DNA from: Octopus vulgaris
Lineage: Eukaryota
DNA length: 64,000 nt
Assembly (NCBI GenBank): GCA_951406725.2
Contig: OX597821.1
Location: forward strand, 31,000,001-31,064,000
Direction: 5' to 3'
Below, piece by piece: positions 3,580 through 61,488 of the stretch. The number at the start of each line of letters is the position of its first letter. The first letter of the stretch is position 1. The notes beneath the pieces are model-generated. The model was given only the letters and a program-made list of their open reading frames with translations. It was not told the origin of the DNA and did no database searches. Both the position numbers and the translations under genes were made by a program.

Positions 3580-3729
3580 CCTGTAGTAAGAAACTTGCTT
3601 CCAAACCACCTGGTTTCGGATTCAGTCCCACTGCGGTGTACCTTCACTAAGTGTTCCCTAATATAACTTCGGGCCGAGCGAAGCCTTGCGAACGGATTCG
3701 GTAGACGTAAATTGAAAGAATCCCGTCGC

Positions 3730-14666: not shown

Positions 14667-16025
14667 ATATATAAAAGAGAGAGAGAGAGAGGGAGATAGA
14701 TATATAGATGGATATAGATATAGTTATAGGTATAGATATATTTATAACACAGACTGATATCCGGCAAACACACAAATTAAAGGCACACAGGCACATACGC
14801 ACACATACACACATATTTATTCCACATTTGAATTTTTCTGTGCACACTCTGATTATATTCTTATTATAACTTTCTAAATAGCCTTTAGCGTAGATTTCAT
14901 CCAAATATATCTACCTATTTATAATGGAATGAAAAATCCTTGAATTAAAGATTTTTTCTTTATCCATATGAACGCTCGAAGGCAAATTCCGACGGCGTCT
15001 AATCATTGTTAATTGAATAAGCACTTTCCTTCGTTTGATATTTCCGAAGTATAATTTAATCAAGATTTCCAATAATATTGATAAATTCTTTAAGAGATTG
15101 TTAATTCAATGATTTTTTTTTCTTCTCTTTCTGTTCTTCGGTAACATGATTAAGCATTCCAATCTTTGAATTCTCTTGTAGAGATTACAGTATTTACATC
15201 AGTTAAATTTTCAATGTCTGTGTACTATTCGTTAACATCAAAGCCTTGTCTTTGAAGATGCGCTTTTGTTTTCCGAATACATTACATTAACTATTCTATT
15301 GAGGTTTTCAAAGAAGAACCATTAAGAAATGTTTAGATCTTTAGGTACACTCTTTTATGGTCTTGATTTTATATTCTACTTATAGGAATTGAAAATCTTC
15401 CACACCGTAAACATTTCTCAGAAAGAATTTTAACCCAAGGGTCATCAATCAAAGATGATTTTTAACACTTTCTTTCTTGTGTACAATAACTTCCACAATC
15501 ATATGAAATGCAGTTTGAACTCTAGGAAGTTCTGGAAAACTATTATTCTTTAATAACATATAACGATGCCGTTTATTTCGCTTTCGTTCATAGACAATAC
15601 TATCTAAAGTAATTACGCTATATTTAGTCCCTAAAGTGTATTAATATTGATATGATTGTTTCTAAAATTGAAATAGTTAGTCTGACATCTATTAATGCTA
15701 ACAAACAACTCTGTGCGTGTTATGAAATAAGTAAGGTCATCTTCTGTGGAACGAGCAAGAGATTTCATTACGTTGGTATATGATTGTTTGTTTTACTAAA
15801 ATGTTATAGTGGATGTGGGAAATATACAGCATTATTGCCTGCAAGACAATTCAAGAATGTACTGCCGACTGAATATTCAGTGATTGTCGAAAAAAAAAAG
15901 TATAAACGCTTTGACGTGCAGCTTTCGGTCAAAGAAATTTTGCGAAACGAGAAATGTAGAGAAAGCTAGTGTTTCATACATTCCTGTGTGATGTGTGTGT
16001 ATGTGTGTGTGTATGTGTTTATATC

Positions 16026-16255
16026 TATTTCTTTACTACTCACAAGGAGCTAAAGGCAGAGGGGACAAACAAAGATAGACAAAGGGATTAAGTCGATTAT
16101 ATCGACCCCAGTGCGTAACTGGTACTTAATTTATCGACCCCGAAAGGATGAAAGGCAAAGTCGACCTCGGCGGGATTTGAACTCAGAACGTAGCGGCAGA
16201 CGGAATACCGCTAAGCATTTCGCCCGGCTTGCTAACGATTCTGCCAGCTCGCGGC
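16026..16255 (-). mobile_element. Nin-domain-like tRNA-derived SINE, full length
   Basis: Reverse strand: gagctggcagaatcgttagc (A box-like), gagttcaaatccc (B box), gcctttcatcctttcggggtcgataaattaagtaccag (Nin-type core). Confidence 0.85.
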
Positions 16256-16865
16256 ATTTGTGTGTGTTTATATCGGTAGTGATCTACTTGCTCCGAGCAA
16301 TTAGCTCAGTAGCACTCCGGCGAGATATTGGCTGGGAAGGTAGTCAAAGGAATATCAATGATACTCGCTATCCACTTACCAGTCAATGAAATAAACAATG
16401 CAACATTCACTGATTAATTTATGACATTACGCACTAAAACTGTAGTAATTTAGGAATAGAAAGTGTAAGAAAGCACCGTCTATCAATTTTTATTGAAAAT
16501 TATTTAAAACTATAAAACGTCTTAGCTCTAACTCTAGAATTTAACACCGGGCAGGTTCATCTATATCATAAACATATCGTGCTCTCGGATGAATCGAAAC
16601 CGAATCATCTTAATAAATCCCGTTGTCATATTGTCATTAACAGAATTGCTAGAACATCTGACAGTGTGAAATTTTCTAAGAAGCTGATTATTATAAAAAC
16701 AGAAGTGTTTAGCAGAGCAGGGTATAATGCGAGAAGCAAGTATGTCTCAGACAAAAGTAGCTTATTCATATAAGCTAGTATCGGTGTTGATAGAAACACA
16801 GTTTATCACCAATATTAAAATATTAGTGACGAACTTAAAGATATTAACACATCCATATATAATTC

Positions 16866-24354: not shown

Positions 24355-24432
<78 letters not shown>

Positions 24433-24617
24433 AATATTAGGGAATAAATCCAAATTTACAGGGAAAAATCAGATTGAGGATTGAATCCAATTTTATAGTA
24501 AAATATTATATTATATTAAATTAGAGACAAAACCACTATTATGCAAATCAAACAAAGAAAGACTTAAGCCAATACATAAATTATTTATATAAATTTAGAA
24601 ATTTAACAATTATAAAT

Positions 24618-24678
24618 AACCACCACGATCGTTTCATGTCTTATTTCAGCACATCTTTGAAACATTCTTCAGGTGGTT
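24618..24678 (-). ncRNA. Type I minimal hammerhead ribozyme, cleavage triplet mutated to GUG
   Basis: aaccac CTGAAGA atgttt..agacat GAAA cgatcg TG gtggtt. Confidence 0.7.
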
Positions 24679-25590
24679 TCAAAACCTAAAATATAATCAA
24701 TATTTTAAGATATAAATAATCTATATAATCAAATAAAATTTACTTATAATAAACTCTATTGTTAAATATGATTATATCGAAATCGACTATAATGTTAATA
24801 GAAATATAGGGCTGCTTTATAAAATATCCGTGTCTATATGTATTTGTGTATGTATAGATATATATATGTGTGTGTGTGTGTGTTTACGTATTTATATATG
24901 TTTATTACATACATATAGTATATAGTATTTATTTAATACTATTTTACTAAGAATAATTATTTCTATAAGTATGTGGTTGAGTATCTGCGGCTATTGGATG
25001 TTATTTCTCCTCTGTGTTAGTGTCTTGCTGAGCGTATATGTTTATGAATGAGTGATTGTATGTATGTGTTTGTGAGTATGCATAAGTAATGTGTAGGGCT
25101 GCATTATAAAATATATCCGTGTCTATATGTATATGTGTATGTATAGATATATATATGTGTGTGTGGGTTTGTGTACGTATTTAGATATGTTTATATACAT
25201 ACATGTATATATGAGCATGAGCATGTGTATATATATTTTTTGTATTTTGAAATTAGCTATTTCATCATTAAATATGAGAAATTAAATATATTAGGTTTTC
25301 ATTATATACAATCGTTTATAGAGATTATTTTAGATCTTGATTATAATATTTCTATATATTTTCATTGATAATTTATATATATTAGTCATTTCAAATATCT
25401 ATTTAAGTAGATATAGACTAAAATGGATATAAGAATATGGATTTTCTACCTTATAAATTAAAGTTAATATTTAACATTATAGTCGATTTCGATATAATCA
25501 TATTTAACAATAGAGTTTATTATAAGTAAATTTTATTTCATTATATAGATTATTTATATCTTAAAATATTGATTATATTTTAGGTTTTGA

Positions 25591-25651
25591 AACCACCTGA
25601 AGAATGTCTCAAAGATGTGCTGAAATAAGACATGAAACGATCGTAGTGGTT
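25591..25651 (+). ncRNA. Type I minimal hammerhead ribozyme, canonical core
   Basis: Stem I aaccac/gtggtt, CTGAAGA, stem II atgtct/agacat, GAAA, palindromic stem III ACGATCGT, GUA cleavage after 25645. Confidence 0.88.
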
Positions 25652-25752
25652 ATTTATAATTGTTAAATTTCTAAATTTGTATAAATAATTTATGTATTGG
25701 CTTAAGTCTTTCTTTGTTTGATTTGCATAATAGTGGTTTTGTCTCTAATTTA

Positions 25753-25806
<54 letters not shown>

Positions 25807-25889
25807 TATGTATATAAACTTACTTGGAGAAAAGAAACGAAACGACGCGAAGGCGCTCAGTCATATAATAATTTAATAAATAAAATATA

Positions 25890-26019: not shown

Positions 26020-27200
26020 ACGGGATCGTTGGCTACGTTGGGGACCAAATATTTTCACAATTCGCTGGTCTCCCTCCTGAACTATAAGGTCATTATATTG
26101 ATGATTGTATCGATGCCACCTCATTCTCCTGCGAACAACTAGACTCTTTCTTCTCTTTTGTCCAATCCTTCCATCTTGCTCTCTAATTCTCCAGCATTAT
26201 TTCTAACAATACCGTCACATTTATCGACATTTCAATCAACATATACTACTTCACTCTCACTACCTCTATCCACTACAAACACACCAACTCACACTCATAC
26301 CATGACTTCTCCCCCCACCTTACCAACACTAAGCTCTCCATCCCCTACTCCCACTTCCTCTGTCTGCGCAGGCTCTGCAGTGAAAACCATTACATTGGGA
26401 CTCAGTTTCAACTCATGGCGCTCCACTTCCTCCATCGTATATCCTCTCAGAACTATCCACACAGCTCTTGGCAGAGCACTTCAATGGGCCGTACCTCAGC
26501 TCTGTCTCTCCGCACCCACTCTGTCGTTGCCCGTCTCCTGTTTCCACTCACCTACCACCCCTCGAACATACAATTCTCCGAGCCTTCCGGCGACATCCGT
26601 CCTACACTTACACCTCGCAAATCTTCCCCAACTTACTCTTTCCTTTTTTCAAACGAGCCCACCACATGCGTGACTTCCTGGTCCACACTTTCTTCCCTAG
26701 CACCACCTCCAGCCTGGCTCGTTCACCCACTCCCGCCCACATTGCAGCAGTTGTCCCTATCTCTCCAACACCACCATCCTCACAGGCATCAAACATTGAC
26801 CCTATCACTTTAACGACTCATTTACCAGCACTTCTAGCAACGCCATTTACTACATCTCCTGCTCTGTCTGCCCTTCTCTGTACATCGGTCAAACGGGACG
26901 CCGCTTGGCTGACCTATTCGCAGAGCAGCTCCGAAACATCGAACTCGGCAATGACACCCAAGCTTCGCGCCATTTCCGCTCTACCGGCTCATTCCTTATA
27001 AAACCTGTCTGTGTTCGGATTGTCTTTTCACAGGGGCCATCCGGACTCCCGCCTTCACCGTGAACTGGAATTAATCTTCTCTCTTCGCTTCTTTGCGCCA
27101 TATGGGCTCAACTCCCCACCTCTCTTCATCTGACTCTCCTACTCTGCTCTCTTCCTCTCTTCACTCCTACCCCACCTTCTCGCTTCCTTCCACTCTCACC
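26020..27200 (+). mobile_element. Penelope-like element remnant (C-rich family), RT end + GIY-YIG
   Basis: HYIDDCI near 26090; NAIYYISCSVCPSLYIGQTGRRLADLFAEQLRNI near 26840-26940. Confidence 0.88.
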
Positions 27201-27229: not shown

Positions 27230-29700
27230 CTGATTAATATAATGACAATGATGAATCCTTGGCGAAAAATAGATAAAACTTTAACCCACCAAAAGACGAA
27301 GTACATATGTAGATCACGTCATTGATAGCCTCTCCCGATTTTGACTGAGGCTTAACGTGAACCTCAGACCGACCATTTCAACGAGAAAGGTCTGCACTTA
27401 TATGTTTTAAAAGTGAAAACAGAATTTTCATGAAACAAGCGGATAACGGGGGTGCCAATATAATAATGGATACGGAATATTACCGGGATCTAGCTGAAGA
27501 TAATCTTAAGGATACAAGGTTCTACCATGAAATCCCTTCAAATATTGATTTCCGCTTCATGAAAAGTTTCAGTTATTTGGTGTCAAAACATTATAACTCC
27601 CTCACTTGTAATGAAAGGGACTATATTACTAATTTTGAGTCGAAATCCAGTAACTTCTATGGCTTACCTAAAATACATAATTCAAAAGAAATACAAGACG
27701 CTACAAAGGCACACGGTAGTGAATACATAAAGCTACTACACCTAAAATACCTCAAATTTAGACCCATTATAGCTGGTCCAGCCTGTCCTACATATCACAC
27801 TGAGCAATCACACTGATTGTATTCTCAACTTATTATATGGTCACATACCCAGTTTCATTCCGGATGACATCTATTTCCTGTTATATCTGTCCAAAACAAC
27901 AGAATCCAATTCGCTGCTAGTTTTGACGTAACAAATGTATATACGAACAATCCATATGACTTGGAAATTACTGTCATAAAATATAGGGTCAATAAACAGA
28001 GAAACTACACACAGTAGATTTATTGTAACCTTCATGCTAGACGCAGTCAACCTCATCCTCGAAAACATCACATTCCCTGTCAATAGGGGAAAAAAACTGC
28101 CTTCAAATTCGAGGCACAGCTAGGAGGATGCGATTTGCTCCAGTTTTCGTGAACTCAGTATTGGAATACTTGGAACAAAACCTACATTTAAAAATTGAAG
28201 CAAAGTACGGCTTGATATTTAGAAGACATACAGAGGACACATGGAAAAGATACCTCGATGGTTGTTTCCTAATTTGGACCAACACCCGAGAAATTATGGA
28301 ATAATTCAGCACTCTCCTCAACAATCTACACCCTACTACCAAAATCATGAGGGAAATGAGCAACACACAATTACCATTTCTTGACAAAATTGCAATTAAA
28401 ATCAACACCACAATCACAACTGATATCTATTATAAAAGCACAGATACACATCAGTAACAATATTTCAAATCATGCCACCCAGCACATACAAAATGTTGTA
28501 CTGTCTAGCCAGGAAAATCAGTACTATAGTAGTTGATCCAAATACCTGGAACATACAACTTGTAGAACTCAAAGGATTTCTACTCAAGCAAAATTACCCT
28601 CTTCTACTAGCGTGCAACGAGCAAAGTAGATACCAATAAAACAACTTAGGGCAACACGTGAAGGCCGAACCCTTCACCACAATATCATTTCTAGTAACAC
28701 ACAATCCACATCGCCAAAACATTTTTAACAACATCAAAACAAATTTGCCAATGAAACATTCCTCTTAACCAAAATGCTATCACTTAAACTTTACAAAATA
28801 TTAACAAAAGCAAAATTCAACGTGAACAAACAGGATAAAACATTGAGAAAATCTAAGTGTAATGATAACAGAACCTGTCAATACATGCATGCTGGTAGAT
28901 CTATTAGAATAAAGAATGGACAGATATGAGCTGCAAAAGCAGACATTTTATCTGCTACATTAAGTGCCCGAATTGCAAGGAACTATATATTGGCGGGACA
29001 GTGAATGCATCACGGGACAGTGAATGCATCACGAGTTCACAGACAACACATACGGAACACTAATGTTCCCAAAATTCCATCAAGCGATCATATAGAAACG
29101 CGCGGTCAGAAGATGTTTCTAATTTTTCCTTTTTACAAACTACATGTCACAAGTGAGGTTGGAGGAAAGATAAAGAAAAACAACAAAAATGGTTTAATAA
29201 AATGTTCAAACCTCTTCTGAACGGAAATAACAACCAATTATTGATGTAGATTAAAAAGTACCTTTAACATATGAACATAAATAAACAAATTACAGAAGAC
29301 TCCAACCATTTCAAATAAAGACGATCGAAGCCAACTAGGTTTGCTCACTCATAAAACTATTATACCTAAAACGAAAAGCTAATTGGTTAAAATAAAGGTG
29401 GGATGTAATCCAGTAAAATCGGTAAGCCTGACAAACCGTGACGTTTAAGCTCAATGCGGATTGGGCAAAAAACGTATTCCAAAAATTACTACATTTGTGA
29501 AGAACTCAAACTGTCAATTAAATACATTTTGAAATCTGACGATTACTACGAACGTATAAAAGCGCTAACTGAGCTTTATGAACATTAAGAAATATATTTT
29601 TTAATGTTTAACACTTCAACATAGAAAAATCTTTTATATAAAAACTGAGAACCAAATCATGTTTTAACTTTATTTAACTTATATATCATTCTATACAGGT
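27230..29700 (+). mobile_element. Penelope-like element, near full-length but degenerate (RT, GIY-YIG, 3' pLTR)
   Basis: KQADNGGANIIMD, FYGLPKIH, FRPIIAGP, WKRYLDGCFLIW, CYIKCPNCKELYIG. Confidence 0.92.
29530..29572 (+). ncRNA. Degenerate hammerhead motif in the Penelope 3' region
   Basis: CTGACGA ttac..gtat AAAA gcgc TA (G12>A; palindrome AGCGCT); stem I poor. Confidence 0.5.
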
Positions 29701-33986: not shown

Positions 33987-34492
<506 letters not shown>

Positions 34493-37794: not shown

Positions 37795-39000
37795 ACTCAA
37801 AGAAATTCCAACTTTGATTTTCACGTTTTATTTATAATCTTATAATAACATAGTATAGTATATGATAATATAATATAATGAAATGATAGAATATTAAATG
37901 TCCATTCTGATTGAACTAGTACTTTCATGAATTAAAACTATGCAATCTTCAGGTTCATGTAGTTGAGATGACAGTTATGTTTTATAATTTACAGCTGTGA
38001 TGAGATTGCTAAAATACATTTCATGGCCTTAAATACATTTGTATTGGCTCCAGAGTGTTAATTTTTGCTAACTGTCTTCTGACCAATCCGTGTGTGATTT
38101 TATTAAATTACTTCAGTTGATTGGTGTTTGGTTTAAGCATCACGGTTTGTTGAACATGTCAAGAGATCCGTGTTCTGAACCTGGCCAAAGCAGTATTTGT
38201 CAGGCTATTGTTAGAAATGTTGTGAAACATTTCTCTGGAATTTTTACATTTCACCTATCATCATCATCATCATCATCATCATTATCATCTCCTTTATTAC
38301 TGTTGTCGTTGTTGTTAGTGGTGGTGGTATGAGTAGCTCTTGTAATAGAACTTTAAAACCCAATATATAATTGTTACTGACTTTTCTCTTGACTTAGCTA
38401 GTATTTTTCTGCTATTACCATAATGACCAGCTTTAGTATTGTTGTTGTTAGTGGTAGTGGTCGTAGCAGTAGATATATTACTTGTAAGTATTAGTATTAT
38501 TGTTTATTTAGCTTGGGTTTGAACTTATTAATAAAGTTCTTTTCTCTAATGTTTTCCATTCAATTTCACTTGAACTGTGTAATTTGTAGAATCGATATAT
38601 AGATATTTTCCGACCGCATGTTGCTAGATGGTTACTCAAAGGTATCTGACAGACATCTGGCTCTTTAATTTGCTGTTGGTGCACACCGTAATGTTCTGAG
38701 ATTGCATTTCCAGTCTGACCTACGTACAGTATTTCACAATTTGGGCATTTGATGCAGTAAATTAAATTTCGGCTTTTGCAGTTCATATTTGCATTTGTGA
38801 ATATTTTTCCGATTTTCGTTTTCATATATGGGCCGGTATGTATCAATTGGCATGTGCTACAGCGGCTATCATTGCATTTACATAGAATGAATGATTAATC
38901 TTTGTTGCCATGGTCAAACTTTGCCTTTGTTAATATTTTATTCAAGTTTTTAGTCTCTCTTCTACTAAGAACCATGGTTACATCTGTAATTATATATTTT
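37795..39000 (-). mobile_element. Penelope-like element 3' end: GIY-YIG domain plus pLTR
   Basis: ORF 38508-38846 NCKSRNLIYCIKCPNCEILYVGQTGN; downstream region is homologous to 48070-48490. Confidence 0.88.
37912..37957 (-). ncRNA. Type I minimal hammerhead ribozyme in Penelope pLTR
   Basis: tgaac CTGAAGA ttgca..ttcat GAAA gtac TA gttca; palindrome AGTACT; stem II has a mismatch. Confidence 0.75.
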
Positions 39001-39299: not shown

Positions 39300-40414
39300 T
39301 ATTATCCACAAATCTTATCAATACAGTTCTCTAGTAAAATGAATGAGAAATATTTCATGATAATAAAACCTTAGAAAACAAATTTAAGTGCACGAGCAAA
39401 AACTAAAGGAGATTACTCGTTATTACACTTATACTTTACAAAAATGTGACGGTTTATAAAAACTTCCTCACACTGTAAAACATATTTTTTTTCGCATAAA
39501 CATGTAAATTCCTCTCAGAAGTAAATGCACTATAAATTTAAATACCTAACAATTTTTCTCTGAATATTAGATAGTACGATTCAATGCATTGAAATGTTAA
39601 ATAATAATAGTTATTATAACGTTTCTCTGCAATACATTCTAAAATAATATCGTAGGATACAATATAAAACAACGTTTCTCTTTTCTCTCTATTATTTCTT
39701 AATATTTTTTCTATCATATAACCCACATAAAATATTACGTGTGTTTCTTCTTCCACTTTTCTCCAATTTTGTCACATTTCGTTATATTTCCCACCTCAAA
39801 AAAAGTGTTTCGCGTAAATATTTAAATTCCACTCCAAAGTATGTAAACTATAATTTTTCTCTGAATAATGGAATTATACGTTAGTGCATTGAAATGCTAA
39901 ATAATTAATAGTTATAATGTTTTTTTTCGAAATACATTCAAAATTAGTATTTTAATATATAGTATCGAAGTATATTTCTCTTTTATATTCCAAATCATTT
40001 ATGTTTATTTTTCGTCCTTCAACAATTTATTTCATCTCTCAATCTGTCTTCAATACCCTTATCAACCTATAACAGCCCTTATTCTAATTAAACGACTACT
40101 TTATGCCACATAACACTTATAAGTCTATTTTTCAAATATATTACAATATTTTAGCAGGATTTCTTTAGATAATATCTCTCCACACGATCTCGGCTTCCTA
40201 ACAAATTATTGTTTACGTTATTTGAATATTTGAAACTACGGTCCTCATCTTACTTATTTCGTTGCTCACCACTAGAATGTAAACATCCACCATGATGATA
40301 TCCGGTCATAATTTGGGGTTATTTCAGATCTAACATCGCTTGAATTGCACAGATGTTATTGGATTAAGTTTGTTTTGTGGTGAGATCGCTTTAGTGTATG
40401 TCCATTATTATTAT

Positions 40415-40790
40415 TAGCAAGCCGGACGAAATGCTTAGAAGTATTTTGTCAGCCGTTACGTTCTGAGTTCAAATTCCACAGAGGTCGTCTTTGCCTTTCA
40501 TCCTTTCAGTGCTGATAAATTAAGTACCAGTTACGCGCTGGGGTCGATGTTATCGACTTAATCCATTTGTCTGTCCTTGTTTGTCCCCTCTGTGTTTAGC
40601 CCCTTGTAGGTAGTAAAGAAATAGGTATTTCGTCTACCTTTACTTTCTGAGTTCAAATTCCGCTGAGATCGTCTCTGCCTTTCATTATTTCGGAGTCGAT
40701 AATTTAAGTACCAGTTGCGTACTGGGGTCAATCTAATCGTCTTGCACCTTCCTCCAAAATTTCGGGCTTTTGCCTAGAGAAGCAAATATC
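40415..40790 (+). mobile_element. Tandem Nin-like SINE copies
   Basis: ctgagttcaaattcc...gcctttcatcctttc...aagtaccag occurs twice. Confidence 0.8.
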
Positions 40791-40891: not shown

Positions 40892-41335
40892 AACTACTAC
40901 TACTACTACTACTACTACTACTGTTCCTGCGATTAACTTTCCAAATTGATTTAAACATAATAATCGTCCCGCTTTGTGCAACTAAAATTTTACACTTGCT
41001 GAAATACTGCCGGTTGCATGTAATCCCTGTTTTTTTTTAACGATGATGCTATTGTAGCAGCCTTTGAATTCACATCTGATTTAATTCTATAACAAATTAT
41101 GTCATTATCTTCATTTTATTGAAAATCACCCATTTAATTCTTCACAGAATGGATCGAGTGGAATAAGCCGCAAAAGTAACTTTCACCTACAAAACTGTAA
41201 CCTATGAAGAAAACGGGAAAGTTCTGAAGAAATTAAATATGTGCCCAAATTTTATTATTCGAGGTGCCTGAATTATTCAAATATATTCCCTTCCTCACTC
41301 TTAGAAATAATTTTTAGAGCTATTTACAAAATATT

Positions 41336-41712
41336 TATTTCTTTACTACCCACATGGGGCTAAACACAGAGGGGACAATCAAGGACAGACAAAGGGATTA
41401 AGTCGATTACATCGACCCCAGTGCGAAACTGGTACTTTATTTATCGACCCCGAAAGGATGAAAGGCAAAGTCGACCTCGGCGAAATTTGAACTCAGAATG
41501 TAATGACAGATGAAATACCTATTTCTTTACTACCCACAGAGGGCTAAATACAAAGAGGTTAAACAAGGACAGACAAATAGATTAAGTCGATTATACCGAC
41601 TCCAGTGCGTAACTGGTACTTAATTCATCGACCCCGAAAGGATGAAAAGCAAAGTTGACCTCAGCGGAATTTGAACTCAGAACGTGACGGCAGTCGAAAT
41701 ACGGCTGCGCAT
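41336..41712 (-). mobile_element. Tandem dimer of Nin-like SINE
   Basis: tatttctttactacccaca...gaaaggatgaaa..caaag occurs twice (41336, 41520). Confidence 0.85.
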
Positions 41713-42393
41713 TTTTAATGTAGACTTATCTGAAACGTATTTGTAGAAAGGTTCTTTAAAATTGATGCATTTTCCAGAACTTTACGAAGAAGTGAATAAG
41801 TGGGAAATATGTTAGTTGACAGAAAATAAGATAAGTTTATGTCAGGTTCAATTAATGCCATTTTGCTTTTTCAGCTTATTTCTACAACTGCGCTTTATAA
41901 ATATGAAAGAATATTGAAATCAAGATAATTTGGCTGAGGCTAGAGTGAAAATATGATATGCAGGGATGATGTTTTTTCTCTGGTACCCCTGTAGAAGATA
42001 GCCTTTCACATGACTGGGCAATTAATATATTTCCAACATTCGATAGCCACCTGGATATAGTGATCTATACGTATGAATGCATGCGTGTGCTTAGAGTATT
42101 TTCATTGTAAATGTGTGCAAAAAATGTCTGTATGTTTGCATAACAAAATTTATTTTGCATAAACTTTATTATAAATAGTGATTAAGTATGCCGCTTTTCA
42201 TGAATGAGATTCGATAAATAAAAGAAAATCGTAATAATTCTCCCGCTCTTTCTCTTTTTCTTTCTCTCTTTCCATTTCACTCTATATCTTTTTTCTCTCT
42301 GCTTTTCATTCTCTCTCTATCTATCTATAGATTATATATGCATATACATAAACATCCATCCATCCATACATATATACATATATATATATATAC

Positions 42394-44857: not shown

Positions 44858-45036
44858 TATAAATATATATAAATTTTAAGAATTGGACAGCCATGAAACG
44901 ATCGTGGTGTTATACTAATTATCTTTTTTTAATAATTTTGATATATATTTAAAATAATATATATTAATTAATCTTATGTATTGGCTTAAGTTGTTCATTG
45001 TATGATTTGCCTAATAGTGGTTTTATATCTAATATA

Positions 45037-45083
<47 letters not shown>

Positions 45084-45309
45084 GAAATATTAAAATTACT
45101 AAGTCTCTCTAAAAGAGAACAGCGGCAGCGTTCCCGGAAAATAATAGTTATCGCCATACTAATATGGCATTCTTATAAAAATAAGAATAATGCTGAACGC
45201 TTATTAGCTCCATGAGGCCATCGCCTTAAGTTAGCTATTTGATACACAAACTGTATCCATATAACCTTCGAACAAGGGAGGTCAGTCGCTCCACACTACT
45301 TGACCGGCA

Positions 45310-45351
45310 GCTACAGACGCGTTTCGGGGTATTGCCCCTTTTCAATGCAGC
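45310..45351 (-). ncRNA. Type I minimal hammerhead ribozyme, U3-A8 variant (copy 1)
   Basis: gctgca TTGAAAA gggg caata cccc GAAA cgcg TC tgtagc. Confidence 0.82.
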
Positions 45352-45671
45352 GTAGCCAGCCAGTAGGTGTCGCCTCCGACAATCTCTGTTCGATGGTTTT
45401 ATTTACCTAGTTTCGGTGGAATACATCCACTTGTTTTCAATAATAGAAATATTAAAATTACTAAGTCTCTCTAAAAGTGAACAGCGGCAGCGTTCCCGGA
45501 AAATAATAGTTATCGCCATACTAATATGGCATTCTTATAAAAATAAGAATAATGCTGACCGCTTATTAGCTCCATGAGGCCATCGCCTTAAGTTAGCTAT
45601 TTGATACACAAACTGTATCCATATAACCTTCGAACAAGGGAGGTCAGTCACTCCACACTACTTGACCGGCA

Positions 45672-45713
45672 GCTACAGACGCGTTTCGGGGTATTGCCCC
45701 TTTTCAATGCAGC
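45672..45713 (-). ncRNA. Type I minimal hammerhead ribozyme, U3-A8 variant (copy 2)
   Basis: Identical to copy 1. Confidence 0.82.
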
Positions 45714-46033
45714 GTAGCCAGCCAGTAGGTGTCGCTTCCGACAATTTCTGTTCGATGGTTTTATATTACCTAGTTTCGGTGGAATACATCCACTTGTTTT
45801 CAATAATAGAAATATTAAAATTACTAAGTCTCTCTAAAAGAGAACAGCGGCAGCGTTCCCGGAAAATAATAGTTATCGCCATACTAATATGGCATTCTTA
45901 TAAAAATAAGAATAATGCTGAACGCTTATTAGCTCCATGAGGCCATCGCCTTAAGTTAGCTATTTGATACACAAACTGTATCCATATAACCTTCGAACAA
46001 GGAGGTCAGTCGCTCCACACTACTTGACCGGCA

Positions 46034-46075
46034 GCTACAGACGCGTTTCGGGGTATTGCCCCTTTTCAATGCAGC
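46034..46075 (-). ncRNA. Type I minimal hammerhead ribozyme, U3-A8 variant (copy 3)
   Basis: Identical to copy 1. Confidence 0.82.
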
Positions 46076-46395
46076 GTAGCCAGCCAGTAGGTGTCGCTTC
46101 CGACAATTTCTGTTCGATGGTTTTATTTACCTAGTTTCGGTGGAATACATCCACTTGTTTTCAATAATAGAAATATTAAAATTACTAAGTCTCTCTAAAA
46201 GAGAACAGCGGCAGCGTTCCCGGAAAATAATAGTTATCGCCATACTAATATGGCATTCTTATAAAAATAAGAATAATGCTGAACGCTTATTAGCTCCATG
46301 AGGCCATCGCCTTAAGTTAGCTATTTGATACACAAACTGTATCCATATAACCTTCGAACAAGGGAGGTCAGTCGCTCCACACTACTTGACCGGAA

Positions 46396-46437
46396 GCTAC
46401 AGACGCGTTTCGGGGTATTGCCCCTTTTCAATGCAGC
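46396..46437 (-). ncRNA. Type I minimal hammerhead ribozyme, U3-A8 variant (copy 4)
   Basis: Identical core to copy 1. Confidence 0.82.
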
Positions 46438-46757
46438 GTAGCCAGCCAGTAGGTGTCGCCTCCGACAATCTCTTTTCGATGGTTTTATTTACCTAGTTTC
46501 GGTGGAATACATCCACTTGTTTTTAATAATAGAAATATTAAAATTACTAAGTCTCTCTAAAAGAGAACAGCGGCAGCGTTCCCGGAAAATAATAGTTATC
46601 GCCATACTAATATGGCATTCTTATAAAAATAAGAATAATACTGACCGCTTATTAGCTCCATGAGGCCATCGCCTTAAGTTAACTATTTGATACACAAACT
46701 GTATCCATATAACCTTCGAACAAGGGAGGTCAGTCGCTCCACACTACTTGACCGGCA

Positions 46758-46799
46758 GCTACAGACGCGTTTCGGGGTATAGCCCCATTTCAATGCAGC
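46758..46799 (-). ncRNA. Hammerhead copy 5, A9>U and loop II change (probably impaired)
   Basis: gctgca TTGAAAT gggg ctata cccc GAAA cgcg TC tgtagc. Confidence 0.7.
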
Positions 46800-47134
46800 G
46801 TAGCCAGCCAGTAGGTGTCGCTTCCGACAATCTCTGTTCGATGGTTTTATTTACCTAGTTTCGGTGGAATACATCCACTTGTTTTCAATAATAGAAATAA
46901 TAAAATTACTAAGTCTCTCTAAAAGAGAACAGCGGCAGCGTTCCCGGAAAATAATAGTTATCGCCATACTAATATGACATTCTTATAAAAATAAGAATAA
47001 TGCTGACCGCAGGTTATATGGATACAGTTTGTGTATCAAATAGCTAACTTAAGGCGATGGCCTCATGGAGCTAATAAGCGGTCAGCATCATTCTTATTTT
47101 TATAAGAATGCCATATTAGTATGCCGATAACTAT

Positions 47135-48796: not shown

Positions 48797-48997
48797 ATAT
48801 GAATAAAAAATGGACTTAACGCAGGTGTAATGAAATATTTTTACTTTCGACACATGTTTCGAAAATTCTCCTGAGGAGAAGATTGCATTGTTTATACCAT
48901 TTATTCTTTTGAATAGTATCAGTGGAATTTTCGAAACATGTGTCGAAAGTACAAATATTTGATTACACCTGCGTTAACTCCATTTTTTTATTCATAT
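48797..48997. repeat. Imperfect palindrome with hammerhead-like relic (second copy ~55888-56088)
   Basis: actttcgacacatgtttcgaaaattc / gaattttcgaaacatgtgtcgaaagt arms; CTGAGGA at 48871. Confidence 0.75.
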
Positions 48998-49000
48998 ATA

Positions 49001-49046
<46 letters not shown>

Positions 49047-50289
49047 TCACACACACACATATGTATATACATATATATGTATATATATATATATATATAA
49101 TATATATATACTTAAATATATATTATGTATATATATATCTCTTATTATAAAAGGCAGATTTTATCTGCCTCCCTTTGACTCTTATAGAAATCCACAATAT
49201 AGGATTTCTTCAATTACAATTTACCTAGCATTTTTAAGAGTAGAATACATAGGGTCGTGCCAGGTCCAGTTTTTCAAATTTCAACCCTAATTAAGCAAAA
49301 TTTAAAGAAAACTCACCATTGTGGTGTGTAAGTCAAGTGCTTTTCTTAGTGTGGGCTACAGCACACACACACACGCACACACACACAAACGGAGCGAACT
49401 GCTTCACTGATGCTATCACCCTAATTTCTCCCACATTCTCTTTGCAAATGTACCTTAAAACACTACTCAAAAAAAAACACAGCAAACAGAAACAAATAAA
49501 TACATAACGATTTACTCCTCACACAATTTCTTCAATTAGAGTTTACCTATGATTTTTCAAAGTACGTCCATTCGGTCATGGCATACAAAATTTCTTTCAA
49601 TTTCACCCCCATTTCAGAAAAAATTCGAGAAAACTAAATATTTTACCATTTCACTCTTTCACTCTGCATTCCCACTTCCTGTTTACACACATAGACACGC
49701 AAATATATAAATAAAATTGTAAGCTAACGTGTGTGTGTGCGTGTGTGTGAGTGTGGTGTGTGTGTGCGTGTGCGTGTGTGTGAGGGTGCATGTGTGTGTG
49801 TGTGTGTGCGTGTGTGACATGCGAACTTCAAAAGAACTTCGCGCGCTATATATCTGGTTTACCATTCCTCACACACACGCATACACATACATATATGACA
49901 GTGACAAACACAAACGTTTCAAACAACTACATACAAACACTCAAACACACACACACGTGTGTGTTTGTTATTAGTAAAAAAGGTGCCAAACACAACTCAC
50001 TTCTCATTCGAACACATTTGCAAAAACACACCGACGGTCGGATTGCCATAACAATACAGAAAAGGTAAATTGGTTTTTAATTTACTTTCTGTCGTTAAAT
50101 TTTGGTAGTATTAATTGGCGAGCGTACTTCTGTTGTCAATTGTTGACAGAAAGAAATTGTAAGCTAATAAGGTGTGTGTGGGTAGGAAGTGAAGGATAAA
50201 AATATTGCAAGAAGTGGACAGATGTACATATATACATCCATACATACATGTGTGTGTGTCTATGTATGTGTATTAATGTGTGTGTGTTA

Positions 50290-50646
50290 TCTCTATATAA
50301 AGCTGAAGTTGTCTGTGTGCGCCACGTTTGGTAACCTTCAACTAACACTATCTCCTCCGAGACCCTGCGGCGCATGTTGACCAAAATTGAGAGTATGATA
50401 GAAGAAGGGTTGCTCCTCCTTCCGTAGAACATAAAATTCAAATCGGACCATGTTAACATGAAAAATTATTTACTTCAAAAAGCTGCTTTTTTCTATGAAA
50501 ATCCCTATTTTTTACGATTTTTTCCCTGCTGTGTCGCCACTTTTCGGTATATTTCGACCCGAAAAATGTTCACAAAATTTTGGCTTTTCAAAATTACAAT
50601 TCCAGCGGGTCGGAACAAACCCGAGCAACGCCGGGCAATACTGCTA

Positions 50647-50647
<1 letters not shown>
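50290..50647 (+). mobile_element. Non-autonomous Helitron-like element (second copy 57372-57730)
   Basis: 5' A|TC tctatataaa; 3' hairpin cccg-agcaacgc-cggg, then CTAG|T. Confidence 0.75.
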
Positions 50648-50690
<43 letters not shown>

Positions 50691-50794
50691 GAGGAAACAC
50701 CCTTCGATCATGAATGACCATGGGATTGCACCTACAAAACTACCCTCCGAGGCACAACCTAGGGGAAGTTTGTTTATGGATGGCCAGTAGTCAC

Positions 50795-50883
50795 CCTGCT
50801 CAAGAACACAACACTCAGACCGGTCCTGGCATCGAACTCGCAACCTCACGATGGTAAGCTCCACGCTCTAACCACTGAGCCAT
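50795..50883 (-). mobile_element. tRNA-derived SINE head
   Basis: Reverse strand tggctcagtggttagagcg (A box) ... gagttcgatgcc (B box) ... gtgttcttgagcagg; no intact cloverleaf. Confidence 0.7.
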
Positions 50884-51102
50884 ATATACAGAGAGAGATA
50901 GGGAGAGAATTGTGAAATGCGTGTAAGTATAATAGCAGGACTAGATGAAGTTATTTTATATTATCCAGTAACCTATTTTATGTTTTTATTTAGCTAAACC
51001 CATTTGTATTATTTCCATTGTCTGTTGAGATCCCCCCAGTTCTAGCACTCTATATTTAATGGTGTAAGTTTATACGTAGCCCAGTTCAGTTTTGTTCATA
51101 TA

Positions 51103-51347
51103 CAGTGTTGGCCAAAAAACAACTGACCGTAAATCAAAATCATTCATTTCCAAGATGAAAACAAAAACAAAAAAATAGTTATCTTTTGAGACCCATAATA
51201 AATAGACAAATGCTGAAAAAAACCAAAACGGTGATTTTAACTCATATCATTCAATTATTAAACTTTCATGATTAGAAATAATAAATAAAATTAAATAAGT
51301 ATTTATGGAATTTATATTTACCGTTGGGCGAATTTTGGCCAACGCTG
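51103..51347. mobile_element. Tc1/mariner-type MITE (second copy 58187-58432)
   Basis: TA|cagtgttggccaaaa ... ttttggccaacgctg|TA. Confidence 0.85.
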
Positions 51348-53534
51348 TATATCTAAGGTAAGTGAGTTGCAAGTCACGTGCACAATGATATACGATGTGT
51401 TCCTAAGGATGACAAAAGTTATTCCTTTCTCTATAAACGACGTTAGTCTACGACGTGAATATTTTTGACTGTTCTTTCTCCTATGCAGGCTAACTTAATA
51501 GACATCCCTCTATCTTTTCGTAAGAGTCCATACATCTTATGAATAATGTAAGCCTTTGTATTATTCATTGCATGGATAATGTTACATTATTTGGGAACGT
51601 TCCAAGATTTTTCTTTTGTTCTCTTGAGTTTTTGTTTATATGAAATATTTTACGCACACAAAAACATATATACATTCAAAATACATACCGACAACCGCAA
51701 AGCGATATTCCAGAAAATGTATAGTATCTCAAGAGTCTGTTGTACATTACATAATTATATTCGTAAATGTTGTAATAATTAGATTTATCTTCAGTAATAT
51801 CATGCAGGAATATACAATATAAAATATGGTTTTGGTTTTTAACTTAGCATATCGATGAGAAACAAATCTACAATATGGTACAATGTATAGTGGAATTTTC
51901 TGGTTGGTTTGTTTACTGTTAGTGTAATATGTTTCCCGTTTGGAAATGGATAAATATATTTAACTTTTGAAGTATGGATATATATATTGATACACCCGTC
52001 ACTTATAACTTACTTTTAAGTTTTATCATTATACATAATCCCTGACTCCAGGTACATAAACGCCATAGCGAGAAATATATTTTCTGAAACGGTAACGGAC
52101 ATTTTATGCGAGCATGTATGTTGAATATAAATAATTTCGTGTTCTTTTAACCGCAATAAAAATACAGATTCATAATTACAGAAACACATTTCATTAATAA
52201 ATTGAAGAACGTGAAGAAAGAGAAAATAATTACTACATTATTCTATGTATGTACGTTTAGCATTATTAATATTCATAATACAATTTGAAGTAATGTAATT
52301 TTGTCGTAGAGAAATACGACTTAAAATTTACGCTAAATAATTCTTCATACTAACTATATTGATCTTACATAGATTAAAACAAAGTCTTGTTGGATTCTTC
52401 ATAGAAATGGCATAAAAACATAACCAATGTCTCAAAGAAGTGAATGTCATGGAGTTTAGTAGCATCCCACAAACACTAAAGTTTTCTCCATAATCCAGGG
52501 TTTTTATAACTGCTAAACTTCACTTTAAAGAATTGAAATCACATAAAAATATTCTTTAACAAAGTTAACTAATTTTCAGAATTCCTGTATGAGCAGTTAT
52601 TTCAACCAATGGGAAAACGACAATCATATTTCTTCGGCAATATGACATTACGTCATATTGCCAGCTACCACACATTGGCGGTACTATTTGAAAATGACTA
52701 CACGCTACAAATGTAAAAAGAATTTTTAAATAGCGCAGTGCATTTCATTTGACATTTCATATATCATAATAACAATTAATATTTTTGAATTATGGGATAC
52801 GAATGTTTAGATAAATATAGTTTACAAACACAATTTTTCTTGCAGTATATAATTAGTATATTCTCTATATATTTGATTATGACACACTGCTGATTATAAC
52901 AGATTACACAATAAAAGGCATCCTTGACGCTTTTTGGGTCTCAGCAGAAATATTGAAGTATTGATTGATGTTTCAATTATATTTACGAACACATTATCAT
53001 ATACTGAATTAAATTAACTGAAAGTTCTATATATTTCAAAATAAAGTGCTTAAAGAAACTGATAGAGCAGATCAAAGTTTGGTGTGATGAATTAAATCAG
53101 AAAAAAAAATCAATTCCAATGAATTGCTTAAATCAGCGATCCCATGAAGCGAAAAAGGTTTGCTGCTAGGAATTACATTCGTAAATCGGTAAACCTTTTA
53201 TTTAGTCTTATAGGCAATAGTTATTACCTCTCCTAACATGAGTACCTTTTAGCTAACATCTGTTTTGAGAGAATCGCACACACTGTCAGTAATGGTAGAA
53301 TTTATATAAGTATCAATTTCGTTCTCAGGATATTCGTAGAATATTTAAAACTTATCTTCCTGTAAAATTATATAGAATCTTTCGTATTTGTTGGCTTTCA
53401 ATAGGGAACATAAATATGAATGATAAATTTATACTGGATTAAGACACTCAAAAATTACATGCAACATCAGGGAAATGTTTATATATATGTGTGTATGTAT
53501 GTGTGCACGTCTGTGTATGTGTTTATGTGTATAC

Positions 53535-53645
<111 letters not shown>

Positions 53646-54111
53646 TACATACATACATTCACACATATATATATATACATACATATATATGTGTCAGCGT
53701 TTTTTGTTTGTACGTGTATAGATCTCAATCTAATTGCTTTAATGAAAGCTCTAATTATTGGGCCATTTCTAACCAAATGTATCTATAGTTGTAATTTCGC
53801 AAATTATAAACATAATCTTCTAATTTGCTGTATTCTCTGAAAACATTGCTGCATGCATTCAGTTGTAATTATTCACTCGAAGCAGCACCAACTTGCTCTA
53901 ATTGTTACTTGAAGAAGCGGCAGCCAATTTATTATCGATAAACGTATCCAAAAGGAAAACAGGAAACTACATGTAACGAGGAGAAATCTAATAAAAAGGA
54001 TTTCTTGGACGAAAATGGATATAATATTAATTCCACGAAAGTACACGTGGTCACATAATAATGCAGATACATACAACTCTATGTATATTGTGCAAGCATA
54101 TGCACACATAC

Positions 54112-54154
<43 letters not shown>

Positions 54155-55032
54155 TGTGTGTGATTATCTTTGCATTCATCTGTTGATGTGATGTGTATTA
54201 GAATTTTTATGAATACTCTTTTACTCTTTTACTTGTTTCAGTCATTTGACTGCGGCCATGCTGGAGCATACCCATTAATGTGGATATAAAATATACGAAT
54301 CAGAGAATAGGATGAAATTACTCCACGTCCAAACACATACACACACTTGCACGCACGCACATAAGTATAAAACGTATAAAATCTACAATATCGGCTTCCT
54401 ATTCAGGCGATTCATTCCACAATTGGAATCCTATAACTTTTATGCAATTCATTGATCTATGTATCTGTCTATCAAGTAATATATCGAACTACTAACGTCT
54501 CTCTATACATGTATACTCATGTATAATATTATTATTCACCACCATTCCATAATAATTACGATGAAGGGTTTATATATCATTATACTTCATATCCGACCTA
54601 CGCATAACAAACATTCCTTCTTGTTGCTCATTATTCTAATAACGTTTAGAAAGACAGTAACATCAAAGTACCATTTATTACAATGTTAAGTAGCTAAACT
54701 TTTCCTGCATCTTATAATTAACCATTTTTATAGATTGTGTTTTTAGAAGATATTTATTAAGTTTGCGCTATATTATGTTAAAGTAAGATTAATATTTTGC
54801 TATTCAATAGCCATAATAAAACCTTGAAAGGGTTCCATTAAGTAAAAGCAATCCATTCACCACTTAACAATTGCTGTAAGTTTTATTACCTTAGCGCTTT
54901 CTTAGTGCTATGAACCTCTCTGAATTAAAATATTTACAAGCAATTTAATATTTTTAAACAACATTGAAACTACCAACTGTTTAAGACTTAGTGAGCATTC
55001 ATTTTTGATTAAAATAATTATTATCGTGACAA

Positions 55033-55263
55033 GGCGGCTAGCTGGCAGAAACGTTAGCACGCCGGGTTAAATGCGTAGCCGTATTTCGTCTGTCGTTACG
55101 TTCCGAGGTCAAATTCCGCCGAGGTGGACTTTGCCTTTCATCCTTTCGGGGTCGAAAAATTAAGTACCAGTTATGCACTGAGGTCGATGTAATCTATTTA
55201 ATCTCTTTGTCTGTCCTTGTTTGTCCCCTCTGTGTTTAGCCCCTTGTGGGTAATAAAGAAATA
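55033..55263 (+). mobile_element. Full-length Nin-like SINE with 13-bp TSD (second copy ~62365-62596)
   Basis: ggcggctagctggcagaaacgttagc...gcctttcatcctttcggggtcg; TSD tattatcgtgaca at 55019-55031 and 55264-55276. Confidence 0.9.
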
Positions 55264-55313
55264 TATTATCGTGACATGTGTATTCATGAATACAAAAAGA
55301 CGCATCACTATTC

Positions 55314-55678: not shown

Positions 55679-56091
55679 TCACACACATATATATATATAT
55701 TTATATATACATACACACACACATATATATAATACGTAAATAGATGAGTGTATTTTTCCCTTGTTAACAATTAACACGGAAAAAAATTAAATAGTTACCA
55801 GGGCAGCAAAAATCTCACAAGTAAAGGTGTTGTAACTACTTGTTTATAAAGGTAGAAACTTCGTGTTTACGTTGAATATTTTGAATAATATGAATAAAAA
55901 ATGGACTTAACGCAGGTGTAATGAAATATTTTTACTTTCGACACATGTTTCGAAAATTCTCCTGAGGAGAAGATTGCATTGTTTATACCATTTATTCTTT
56001 TGAATAGTATCAGTGGAATTTTCGAAACATGTGTCGAAAGTACAAATATTTGATTACACCTGCGTTAACTCCATTTTTTTATTCATATATA

Positions 56092-56137
<46 letters not shown>

Positions 56138-57729
56138 TCACACACACACATATGTATATACATATATATGTATATATATATATATATATAATATATATAT
56201 ACTTAAATATATATTATGTATATATATATCTCTTATTATAAAAGGCAGATTTTATCTGCCTCCCTTTGACTCTTATAGAAATCCACAATATAGGATTTCT
56301 TCAATTACAATTTACCTAGCATTTTTAAGAGTAGAATACATAGGGTCGTGCCAGGTCCAGTTTTTCAAATTTCAACCCTAATTAAGCAAAATTTAAAGAA
56401 AACTCACATTGTGGTGTGTAAGTCAAGTGCTTTTCTTAGTGTGGGCTACAGCACACACACACACGCACACACACACAAACGGAGCGAACTGCTTCACTGA
56501 TGCTATCACCCTAATTTCTCCCACATTCTCTTTGCAAATGTACCTTAAAACACTACTCAAAAAAACACAGCAAACAGAAACAAATAAATACATAACGATT
56601 TACTCCTCACACAATTTCTTCAATTAGAGTTTACCTATGATTTTTCAAAGTACGTCCATTCGGTCATGGCATACAAAATTTCTTTCAATTTCACCCCCAT
56701 TTCAGAAAAAATTCGAGAAAACTAAATATTTTACCATTTCACTCTTTCACTCTGCATTCCCACTTCCTGTTTACACACATAGACACGCAAATATATAAAT
56801 AAAATTGTAAGCTAACGTGTGTGTGTGCGTGTGTGTGAGTGTGGTGTGTGTGTGCGTGTGTGTGTGTGAGGGTGCATGTGTGTGTGTGTGTGCGTGTGTG
56901 ACATGCGAACTTCAAAAGAACTTCGCGCGCTATATATCTGGTTTACCATTCCTCACACACACGCATACACATACATATATGACAGTGACAAACACAAACG
57001 TTTCAAACAACTACATACAAACACTCAAACACACACACACGTGTGTGTTTGTTATTAGTAAAAAAGGTGCCAAACACAACTCACTTCTCATTCGAACACA
57101 TTTGCAAAAACACACCGACGGTCGGATTGCCATAACAATACAGAAAAGGTAAATTGGTTTTTAATTTACTTTCTGTCGTTAAATTTTGGTAGTATTAATT
57201 GGCGAGCGTACTTCTGTTGTCAATTGTTGACAGAAAGAAATTGTAAGCTAATAAGGTGTGTGTGGGTAGGAAGTGAAGGATAAAAATATTGCAAGAAGTG
57301 GACAGATGTACATATATACATCCATACATACATGTGTGTGTCTATGTATGTGTATTAATGTGTGTGTGTTATCTCTATATAAAGCTGAAGTTGTCTGTGT
57401 GCGCCACGTTTGGTAACCTTCAACTAACACTATCTCCTCCGAGACCCTGCGGCGCATGTTGACCAAAATTGAGAGTATGATAGAAGAAGGGTTGCTCCTC
57501 CTTCCGTAGAACATAAAATTCAAATCGGACCATGTTAACATGAAAAATTATTTACTTCAAAAAGCTGCTTTTTTCTATGAAAATCCCTATTTTTTACGAT
57601 TTTTTCCCTGCTGTGTCGCCACTTTTCGGTATATTTCGACCCGAAAAATGTTCACAAAATTTTGGCTTTTCAAAATTACAATTCCAGCGTGGTCGGAACA
57701 AACCCGAGCAACGCCGGGCAATACTGCTA

Positions 57730-57772
<43 letters not shown>

Positions 57773-60612: not shown

Positions 60613-60683
<71 letters not shown>

Positions 60684-60883
60684 GTGTGTACATATATGTG
60701 TAATATATAAACATATGTATACATACATATATGCATAATAATATATATGCATATGTATATATAAATATATATATATATGTATCAATTGATAAATACATAC
60801 ATATATACGTATATATATGTATACATATGTATATCAATACGTATATATACGTATATATATGTATACATATGTAATTATCAATC

Positions 60884-60987
<104 letters not shown>

Positions 60988-61447
60988 CATACATTCACAC
61001 ATATATATATATACATACATATATATGTGTCAGCGTTTTTTGTTTGTACGTGTATAGATCTCAATCTAATTGCTTTAATGAAAGCTCTAATTATTGGGCC
61101 ATTTCTAACCAAATGTATCTATAGTTGTAATTTCGCAAATTATAAACATAATCTTCTAATTTGCTGTATTCTCTGAAAACATTGCTGCATGCATTCAGTT
61201 GTAATTATTCACTCGAAGCAGCACCAACTTGCTCTAATTGTTACTTGAAGAAGCGGCAGCCAATTTATTATCGATAAACGTATCCAAAAGGAAAACAGGA
61301 AACTACATGTAACGAGGAGAAATCTAATAAAAAGGATTTCTTGGACGAAAATGGATATAATATTAATTCCACGAAAGTACACGTGGTCACATAATAATGC
61401 AGATACATACAACTCTATGTATATTGTGCAAGCATATGCACACATAC

Positions 61448-61488
<41 letters not shown>

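Follow-up and report, generated by a model that had tools for sequence, protein, structure and literature searches.

An inverted pair of 3'-end fragments of a Hydra-clade PLE, bearing dimer-type hammerhead motifs, in the genome of Octopus vulgaris

The window analysed here is a stretch of 64,000 nucleotides of Octopus vulgaris DNA (contig OX597821.1, positions 31,000,001 to 31,064,000 of the forward strand). Between positions 24430 and 25765 it contains two inverted arms, each with a hammerhead ribozyme (HHR) motif. The initial annotation regarded this DNA as a non-autonomous element dependent on a Penelope-like element (PLE) and as the best candidate in the window for an active, fully canonical ribozyme. 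This raises the question of what kind of element left the two arms, and whether their HHRs are likely to be functional.

The arms (24507-24798 and 25471-25762; Table 1) are 292 nt long, 99% complementary, and arranged head to head, pointing apart. They differ at four positions: 25539, 25608, 25645, and 25679. The left arm is really 369 nt long, bearing a tail of ~73 nt that is missing from the right arm. In four other copies (L004, L011, L014, and L020), this tail is placed after the position equivalent to 25762. Inverted arms of ~295 bp, (TA)n on both sides, and the absence of coding sequence had been described on first inspection, and all three are borne out: (TA)n lies at both ends of the element, and the longest stop-free frame within it is 73 aa. 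Two older 3' stubs of the same PLE family, with 82-85% identity, are located at 34097-34174 and 44890-45053 of the window; the latter begins within the HHR and also reads GUG.

Table 1. Features of the inverted pair, in window coordinates
Feature	Position	Strand	Basis or remark
Left (TA)n target microsatellite	24364-24430	.	Sequence; family copies likewise end in (TA)n
PLE "tail", ~73 nt, left arm only	24430-24502	-	Tail behind 29 of 82 sampled HHRs
Inverted 369-nt copy of element 3' end (intron end, exon 2, and tail)	24430-24798	-	96.8% identity to L031 5618-5990
Type I HHR motif, GUG triplet, one G-U in stem II, likely decayed	24618-24678	-	Motif scan; GUG in 4 of 3600 pattern matches
Mirror copy of the acceptor	24686-24687	-	Counterpart of AG at 25582-25583
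Retained 3' part of GT-AG intron	24799-25583	+	Maps to L031 from 5221; starts ~430 nt below internal donor
Direct repeat inside retained intron	24807-24923 and 25094-25212		91% identity
3' splice acceptor AG, 7 nt upstream of HHR stem I	25582-25583	+	Precisely spliced genomic copies join there
pLTR exon 2, without tail	25584-25762	+	Comparison with family copies
HHR motif of type I, dimer-type; cut predicted at 25645|25646	25591-25651	+	Layout of published Hydra HHRs
Right (TA)n target microsatellite	25757-25815	.	Sequence

A search of the 2.8-Gb genome with the arm gave 43 matches (best 40 of 2026 candidates scored) with 88-100% identity, many of them as inverted pairs. In L031, a GIY-YIG frame of 205 aa (E 2e-4 with Pfam PF01541, a score slightly below the curated cut-off) lies ~2.1 kb upstream of the HHR, and the 3' end of L031 is 96-97% identical to that of the window copy. 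L080 contains a 422-aa, 5'-truncated frame together with a 3' end 91-93% identical to that of the window, and in L035 a shorter GIY-YIG coding piece is joined to the same 3' end. The copies attached to a PLE ORF, for which a genome-wide search had been suggested, are thus present. In addition, the window copy shares its whole interior, colinearly and with 85-97% identity, with the intron found in ORF-bearing copies, and the copies of the family are nested 5' truncations of a single long unit. These colinear GIY-YIG and RT-EN copies support the earlier view that the DNA is PLE-derived and was mobilised by PLE enzymes.

Full-length ORFs were found outside the window's own subfamily. A protein search of the genome gave 154 matches (best 150 of 19108 candidates scored), some with open frames of 820-860 aa. 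Among 20 regions selected by EN similarity, L086, L088, L089, L090, and L091 contain frames of 838-841 aa with Met as the second residue, and L092 and L074 contain frames of 852 and 821 aa, respectively. The full ORFs belong to sister subfamilies: their EN is 86-91% identical, and their pLTR is ~77-79% identical to that of L031. No intact ORF of the window's subfamily was found in these 20 regions or in 20 others taken from the HHR and arm hits.

According to the accessible text of PMC8557442, the Hydra clade consists of PLEs with a C-terminal EN and is characterized by RWK, DKT, CxCX5C, CxxC, and CxH, with no CCHH. The sister ORFs contain RIKWK (with K, not R, before WK), QSDKT, LYRDD, CTCRDKSxC, and CYLC..E..N..CRH, and CCHH was not seen in them by eye. 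The sister copies, not the window, have a single ORF with RT and, at its C-terminus, a GIY-YIG EN; the RWK-like motif, the change of DKG to DKT, the CxCX5C linker, CxxC and CxH, insertion into (TA)n, and an HHR near the 3' end are likewise those of the clade, as are the inverted, 5'-truncated copies and the one-sided tail (PMC8557442, in the part available). The RT call and the Hydra-clade assignment rest on these motifs as read by eye against the published alignment, and Pfam gave no RT match on two full ORFs. As far as genomic comparison goes, the inverted pair comes from an autonomous PLE of the Hydra clade, whose 3' end (pLTR) it contains in 5'-truncated, inverted form. The family is new, and both its clade and its type of ribozyme have been described before.

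Several differences from the clade as described in PMC8557442 should be mentioned. The unspliced element is ~5-7 kb, compared with generally <3 kb, owing to a 3' intron of 1.9-3.9 kb; splicing from donor 1 reduces it to ~3 kb. The tail has ~73 nt instead of 30-40 nt, an Asn-rich insert is present in the ORF, and no intron is reported in the Hydra section of that paper. Hydra-1_Obim, an octopus element of 2507 bp, is unlike the present family in its N-terminus, HHR, and length (same source, in part). The insert, an Asn/Lys-rich low-complexity region of variable length, lies between RT and EN (approximately residues 495-600 of the L086 ORF; also in L073, L080, L083, and L092). It resembles the N-rich inserts described in Adineta vaga Penelopes (PMC3846280, available portion).

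A PLE remnant at 26143-27001 of the window was considered as part of the element and rejected: it matched just the window's own loci among the 42 loci compared. Broken RT or GIY-YIG pieces of other PLE families are found in the window at 1483-2450 and 38508-38894 on the minus strand, and at 26143-27001 and 27361-27816 on the plus strand. Two of these pieces resemble a nearly complete element in L040.

The letters of the plus-strand HHR are as the initial annotation gave them: a perfect stem I (AACCAC/GTGGTT), CTGAAGA, a 6-bp stem II, GAAA, the palindrome ACGATCGT, and a GTA site. The loop of stem II has 18 nt. Scanning of the whole window for type I HHRs gave exactly two matches, this motif (GUA) and the one on the minus strand (GUG), and a looser core scan picks up a second, different hammerhead family. 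The Rfam scan gave 125 matches, none of them to a hammerhead family; all were to miRNA models, mainly on simple repeats. In the genome, the HHR pattern was matched at 3600 places, whereas the reversed pattern, used as a control, gave no match genome-wide; therefore, the motif is not due to chance. A tighter, window-like pattern gave 356 matches. The pattern fixes the core and leaves N7, loop II, and the inner stem III free, which means that its matches reveal tolerated variation, not core conservation. In the copies selected by the arm, core changes in the HHR are only sporadic.

The cut-site triplet is GUA at 3551 of the 3600 places, GUU at 42, GUC at 3, and GUG at 4 (those other than GUA sorted by hand). 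GUU is typical of one subfamily, and one of the four GUG places is the minus arm of the window. Because GUG occurs at just 4 of the 3600 places, it is, on this count, a sporadic decay and not a feature of the family. Under the NUH rule, GUG is a poor hammerhead cut site: the plus copy (GUA) obeys the rule and the minus copy does not. The GUG of the minus copy had been recognized correctly, and this copy is probably dead.

Variation was counted in 82 of the first 90 places listed; the eight excluded include three spliced and three unspliced copies examined earlier. N7 is A in 63, U in 11, and C in 8, the span between the core boxes is 14-37 nt, and TGTC/GACA is retained in 75. The letters at 10.1 and 11.1 are paired in 49 and mismatched in 33, and are G-C in none; in the plus copy of the window, the pair is A-U, not G-C. 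At the inner stem III, 49 places have a perfect palindrome, 24 have one with G-U pairing, and 9 have another form. Covariation of this palindrome was considered as proof of selection for dimers and was dropped, since the exchange of ACGATCGT and ACAATTGT is equally explained by CpG decay.

Folding was predicted for the 61-nt plus copy. Stem I forms, the pair probability of stem II is ~0.05, and that of stem III, which has 2 bp in the monomer, is 0. The hammerhead fold lies 4.1 kcal/mol above the predicted minimum: the minimum-energy fold of the monomer is not a hammerhead. For the palindrome ACGAUCGU, a self-duplex of -10.0 kcal/mol is predicted, and it is present in the dimer co-fold. For read-through RNA that spans the complete element, the prediction places the HHR in a 292-bp hairpin with the opposite arm. 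Thus, two features of a canonical monomer-active HHR, G10.1-C11.1 (0 of 82) and a stable stem III (probability 0), are missing, whereas the core, stems I and II, the NUH site of the plus copy, and the palindromic stem III are those of a dimer-type type I HHR. Judged by its letters, the HHR is a dimer-type Hydra variant; "fully canonical" was an overstatement in view of the A-U pair, the 2-bp stem III, and the predicted misfolding of the monomer. It is predicted to cut weakly or slowly, and as a dimer only. That the plus copy is the best candidate in the window for an active ribozyme is doubtful as well, considering the lack of exon 1 and of the likely start site, the predicted misfold, and the pairing with the other arm in read-through RNA.

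Minimal type I HHRs of metazoan PLEs (PMC4209133; File S2 of PMC8557442) have the same CUGANGA/GAAA core and a short palindromic stem III. By inspection, no loop-loop contact is evident in the metazoan PLE HHRs presented in the accessible part of PMC4209133 or in the octopus HHR. In several published Hydra HHRs, too, the 4-bp stem II is flanked by one additional pair of letters (PMC8557442). In contrast, G10.1-C11.1 is highly conserved in the HHRs of PMC4209133 and missing here, and loop II is long in the window subfamily. In the available text of PMC4209133 and PMC6765202, monomers of metazoan PLE HHRs are inactive and dimers are weak.

The window also contains a 362-nt direct tandem repeat in five copies (45078-47010), four units of which bear a minimal hammerhead on the minus strand (45308-45353, 45670-45715, 46032-46077, and 46394-46439). 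This retrozyme-like hammerhead has a UUGAAAA core (U3-A8 covariant), G10.1-C11.1, the palindrome ACGCGU, and a GUC site. For dimer formation, the GUC array (45308-46439) seems to be in a more favourable position than the two inverted arms.

The 5' ends of genomic copies bear on cleavage in vivo. The largest sister subfamily has 931 matches, of which 16 start at most three positions from the cut site (18 hits less two small deletions), compared with 24-28 of 4428 (sorted by eye) at a control site 38 nt downstream that has the same three preceding letters. Fisher's test gives p 0.0006-0.002, or 0.012 when two possible duplicates are merged, for an eye-sorted, unreplicated comparison of one subfamily with a single control of broader subfamily mix. 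An upstream control gave nine hits, five or six of them truncations by eye, and provides no rate, since its denominator pattern left out intact copies. In L103, poly(A) lies immediately upstream of the cut site, and both arms of the L098/L099 pair begin at the cut site. This excess of 5' ends may be taken as a weak hint of cleavage in vivo. The HHR is uncut nearly everywhere: G at -3 above the cut site is kept in 913 of the 931 matches, and the HHR in nearly all of the 100 listed.

Such retention would also be expected if the HHR were a non-cleaving relic or a protein-binding structure, kept, for example, for splicing or RT binding. The lack of G10.1-C11.1 in all 82 sampled copies and the predicted misfolding agree with this explanation, as does part of the work on the anole PLE: mutation of the HHR left insertion in vitro unaffected, and RNA-seq showed no ends where the HHR would be cut (PMC11167929). 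However, the anole HHR cleaves in vitro in the same work. In the octopus copies, moreover, variation sits where catalysis permits it, namely at N7, in loop II, and at the cut base, which is A, U, or C in 3596 of the 3600 places and hardly ever G. With the weak surplus of 5' ends added, a purely non-cleaving role seems rather unlikely.

A GT-AG intron terminates 7 nt 5' of HHR stem I. Many copies match the arm only from 25582-25586 on, where the window reads TTTTAG followed, across the junction, by GTTTTGAAACCAC. Two donors feed this one acceptor: donor 1 lies ~200-225 nt past the ORF stop, and donor 2 lies within the donor-1 intron. Behind 36 distinct ORF ends, the sequence passes exactly into exon 2 in 6 cases, shows the GT donor in 26, and escaped the pattern in 4. 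The donor-1 intron is 2.6-3.9 kb long in seven sister copies, 2.9 kb in L125, and 1.9 kb in L031; the distance from donor 2 to the acceptor ranges from 0.95 kb (L031, 4788 to 5733) up to 1.85 kb.

Both spliced and unspliced DNA copies are present. The intron end is kept at 18 of the 82 sampled HHR places, 56 are joined to exon 1 by a loose rule, and 8 are of other types (L177 was reassigned to unspliced by eye and by an 11-letter donor check). The donor was verified in 31 of the 56 (33 hits, of which two were discounted as chance): their 11 letters recur in an unspliced copy, where they precede a GT donor. As judged from these junctions, most sampled sister copies are precisely spliced and so were likely copied from processed sense RNA. 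Both arms were donor-verified as spliced in seven head-to-head loci (L153, L161, L167, L169, L181, L182, and L199). An antisense template was proposed in 2013 for head-to-head pairs and intron retention (PMC3846280, available portion); spliced arms in head-to-head pairs therefore favour a sense RNA template in the octopus family.

When the 5' ends of 16 copies were compared with one reference, 12 started 17-23 nt above donor 2, three closer, and one further. Near these clustered ends lies a motif that we take to be initiator-like, and from the clustering alone we infer a transcription start site near donor 2. The donor-2 motif is absent in window positions 24400-25800: the window copy is unspliced, starts downstream of donor 2, and has no exon 1.

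This arrangement resembles the pLTR of D. virilis Penelope, in which the start site and a 5'-UTR intron lie in the pLTR, the exon is short, and HHR stem I starts at the intron's 3' end (PMC2377424, accessible part). The Penelope intron has 75 bp, against 0.95-1.85 kb here, where a second donor lies upstream, behind the ORF stop. Furthermore, Penelope is known for intron retention, whereas spliced copies are the majority in the octopus genomic sample. In the literature searched, which included few subscription papers, neither PLE families with mostly spliced copies nor introns in Hydra elements are described. Contigs of runs whose RNA origin is a guess cover parts of the pLTR and are uninformative on strand, ends, and level. 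A junction within the HHR core recurs in 7-8 of 33 rows; it could reflect the use of another acceptor, or slippage from one 9-nt repeat to another.

In L111, a 175-nt host exon with AG/GT borders (2640-2814; G000:C2:57205639-57205813) is 98% identical to a segment of L132 (G000:C4:139949733-139949907). It is joined at both exact borders, on the donor side to the acceptor of the PLE family, and L111 appears to be a chimera of host and PLE that was processed and then retroposed in trans. The host-PLE junction is crossed without differences by one contig from run X8, a run whose RNA status is a guess. A pLTR of the same subfamily was not found in 100 kb around the L111 host exon (80 kb downstream).

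The term "non-autonomous element" of the initial annotation would correspond to a separate SINE-like or retrozyme-like family that borrows PLE enzymes. The window copy has no ORF, the 40 regions mentioned above contain no intact ORF of its exact subfamily, and non-coding, spliced solo pLTRs of ~300 nt form the majority of the sampled copies. Non-LTR retrozymes are similarly non-coding, PLE-related, and provided with a type I HHR (10.64898/2026.07.22.740005, in part). However, retrozymes are defined there by direct tandem arrays, whereas the sampled octopus copies, with few exceptions, stand alone or in head-to-head inverted pairs, and they are colinear with an ORF parent. The colinearity of the whole interior and the nesting of copies in one long unit also argue against a separate family, which is improbable. 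The term can be kept for the short spliced solo-pLTR retrocopies, the commonest in the sample; it fails for a family of its own, as the 3' end adjoins GIY-YIG coding sequence in L031, L035, and L080. The near-perfect inverted arms, the lack of an ORF, and the TA flanks might suggest a DNA transposon of the MITE or foldback type whose terminal inverted repeats measure 292 bp. This reading can practically be dismissed: arm lengths and junctions vary among copies, many copies are solo, the tail is on one arm, and the precise intron loss of the spliced copies needs an RNA step.

The preferred reading, to which we give a probability of about 0.88, is that a high-copy PLE of the Hydra clade left two fragments of its 3' end (pLTR) head to head at this locus, likely by reverse transcription of unspliced sense RNA and insertion into (TA)n, with HHRs predicted to be slow and to act only as dimers. 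In the proposed cycle, a promoter inside the long 3' region would start RNA ~23-30 nt above donor 2, and splicing would join the short exon 1 to exon 2, which contains the HHR and the tail. In tandem copies, the following ORF would have exon 2 as its 5' UTR; in L086, the ATG lies 239 nt past the cut site. The RT/EN of the element would then copy spliced or unspliced, mostly uncut RNA, and two 3' start points, with or without the tail, would lead to unequal arms. Such points have a parallel in vitro: the anole PLE RT starts at two sites bounding the tail, with uncut RNA as the dominant substrate (PMC11167929, as far as accessible). The HHR would be kept functional in master elements and would probably cut a minority of RNAs via the stem III palindrome. 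The window copy itself lacks exon 1 and is most likely a fossil without activity.

By itself, the window locus carries little weight: the copy is ordinary, and there are thousands of such fragments. What makes the family interesting is its spliced retrocopies and the possible cleavage footprint. We put forward, tentatively, that the genomic copies of the family record how the PLE RNA cycle runs in vivo, in which a pLTR promoter gives a ~300-nt spliced RNA with the HHR that is retroposed in a SINE-like manner and accounts for most sampled copies; pairs spliced in both arms would speak against an antisense template, ~1% of copies would start at the cut site, and the acceptor would capture host exons that are then retroposed. 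If this is true, the ~1% of copies beginning at the cut site would be a fossil footprint of cleavage by a PLE hammerhead in the germ line. The occurrence of spliced and unspliced copies together suggests that processed sense RNA with an uncut ribozyme was copied in vivo, which fits the in vitro work (PMC11167929, available text). The family might therefore serve as a test bed for the role of PLE hammerheads, the keeping of introns, and the strand that templates head-to-head insertions (PMC8557442 and PMC3846280, in the parts available).

Two further repeats of the window should be mentioned. The segment ~48900-54200 is near-identical to 56000-61500, at a distance of ~7.1-7.3 kb, with identical frames at 48913 and 56004; it is a local duplication or an assembly repeat. 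Another dispersed repeat family of ~200-300 nt occurs at 16021-16258, 40414-40743, 41326-41714, 55031-55266, and 62364-62599, and includes a 184-nt tandem unit and an inverted pair.
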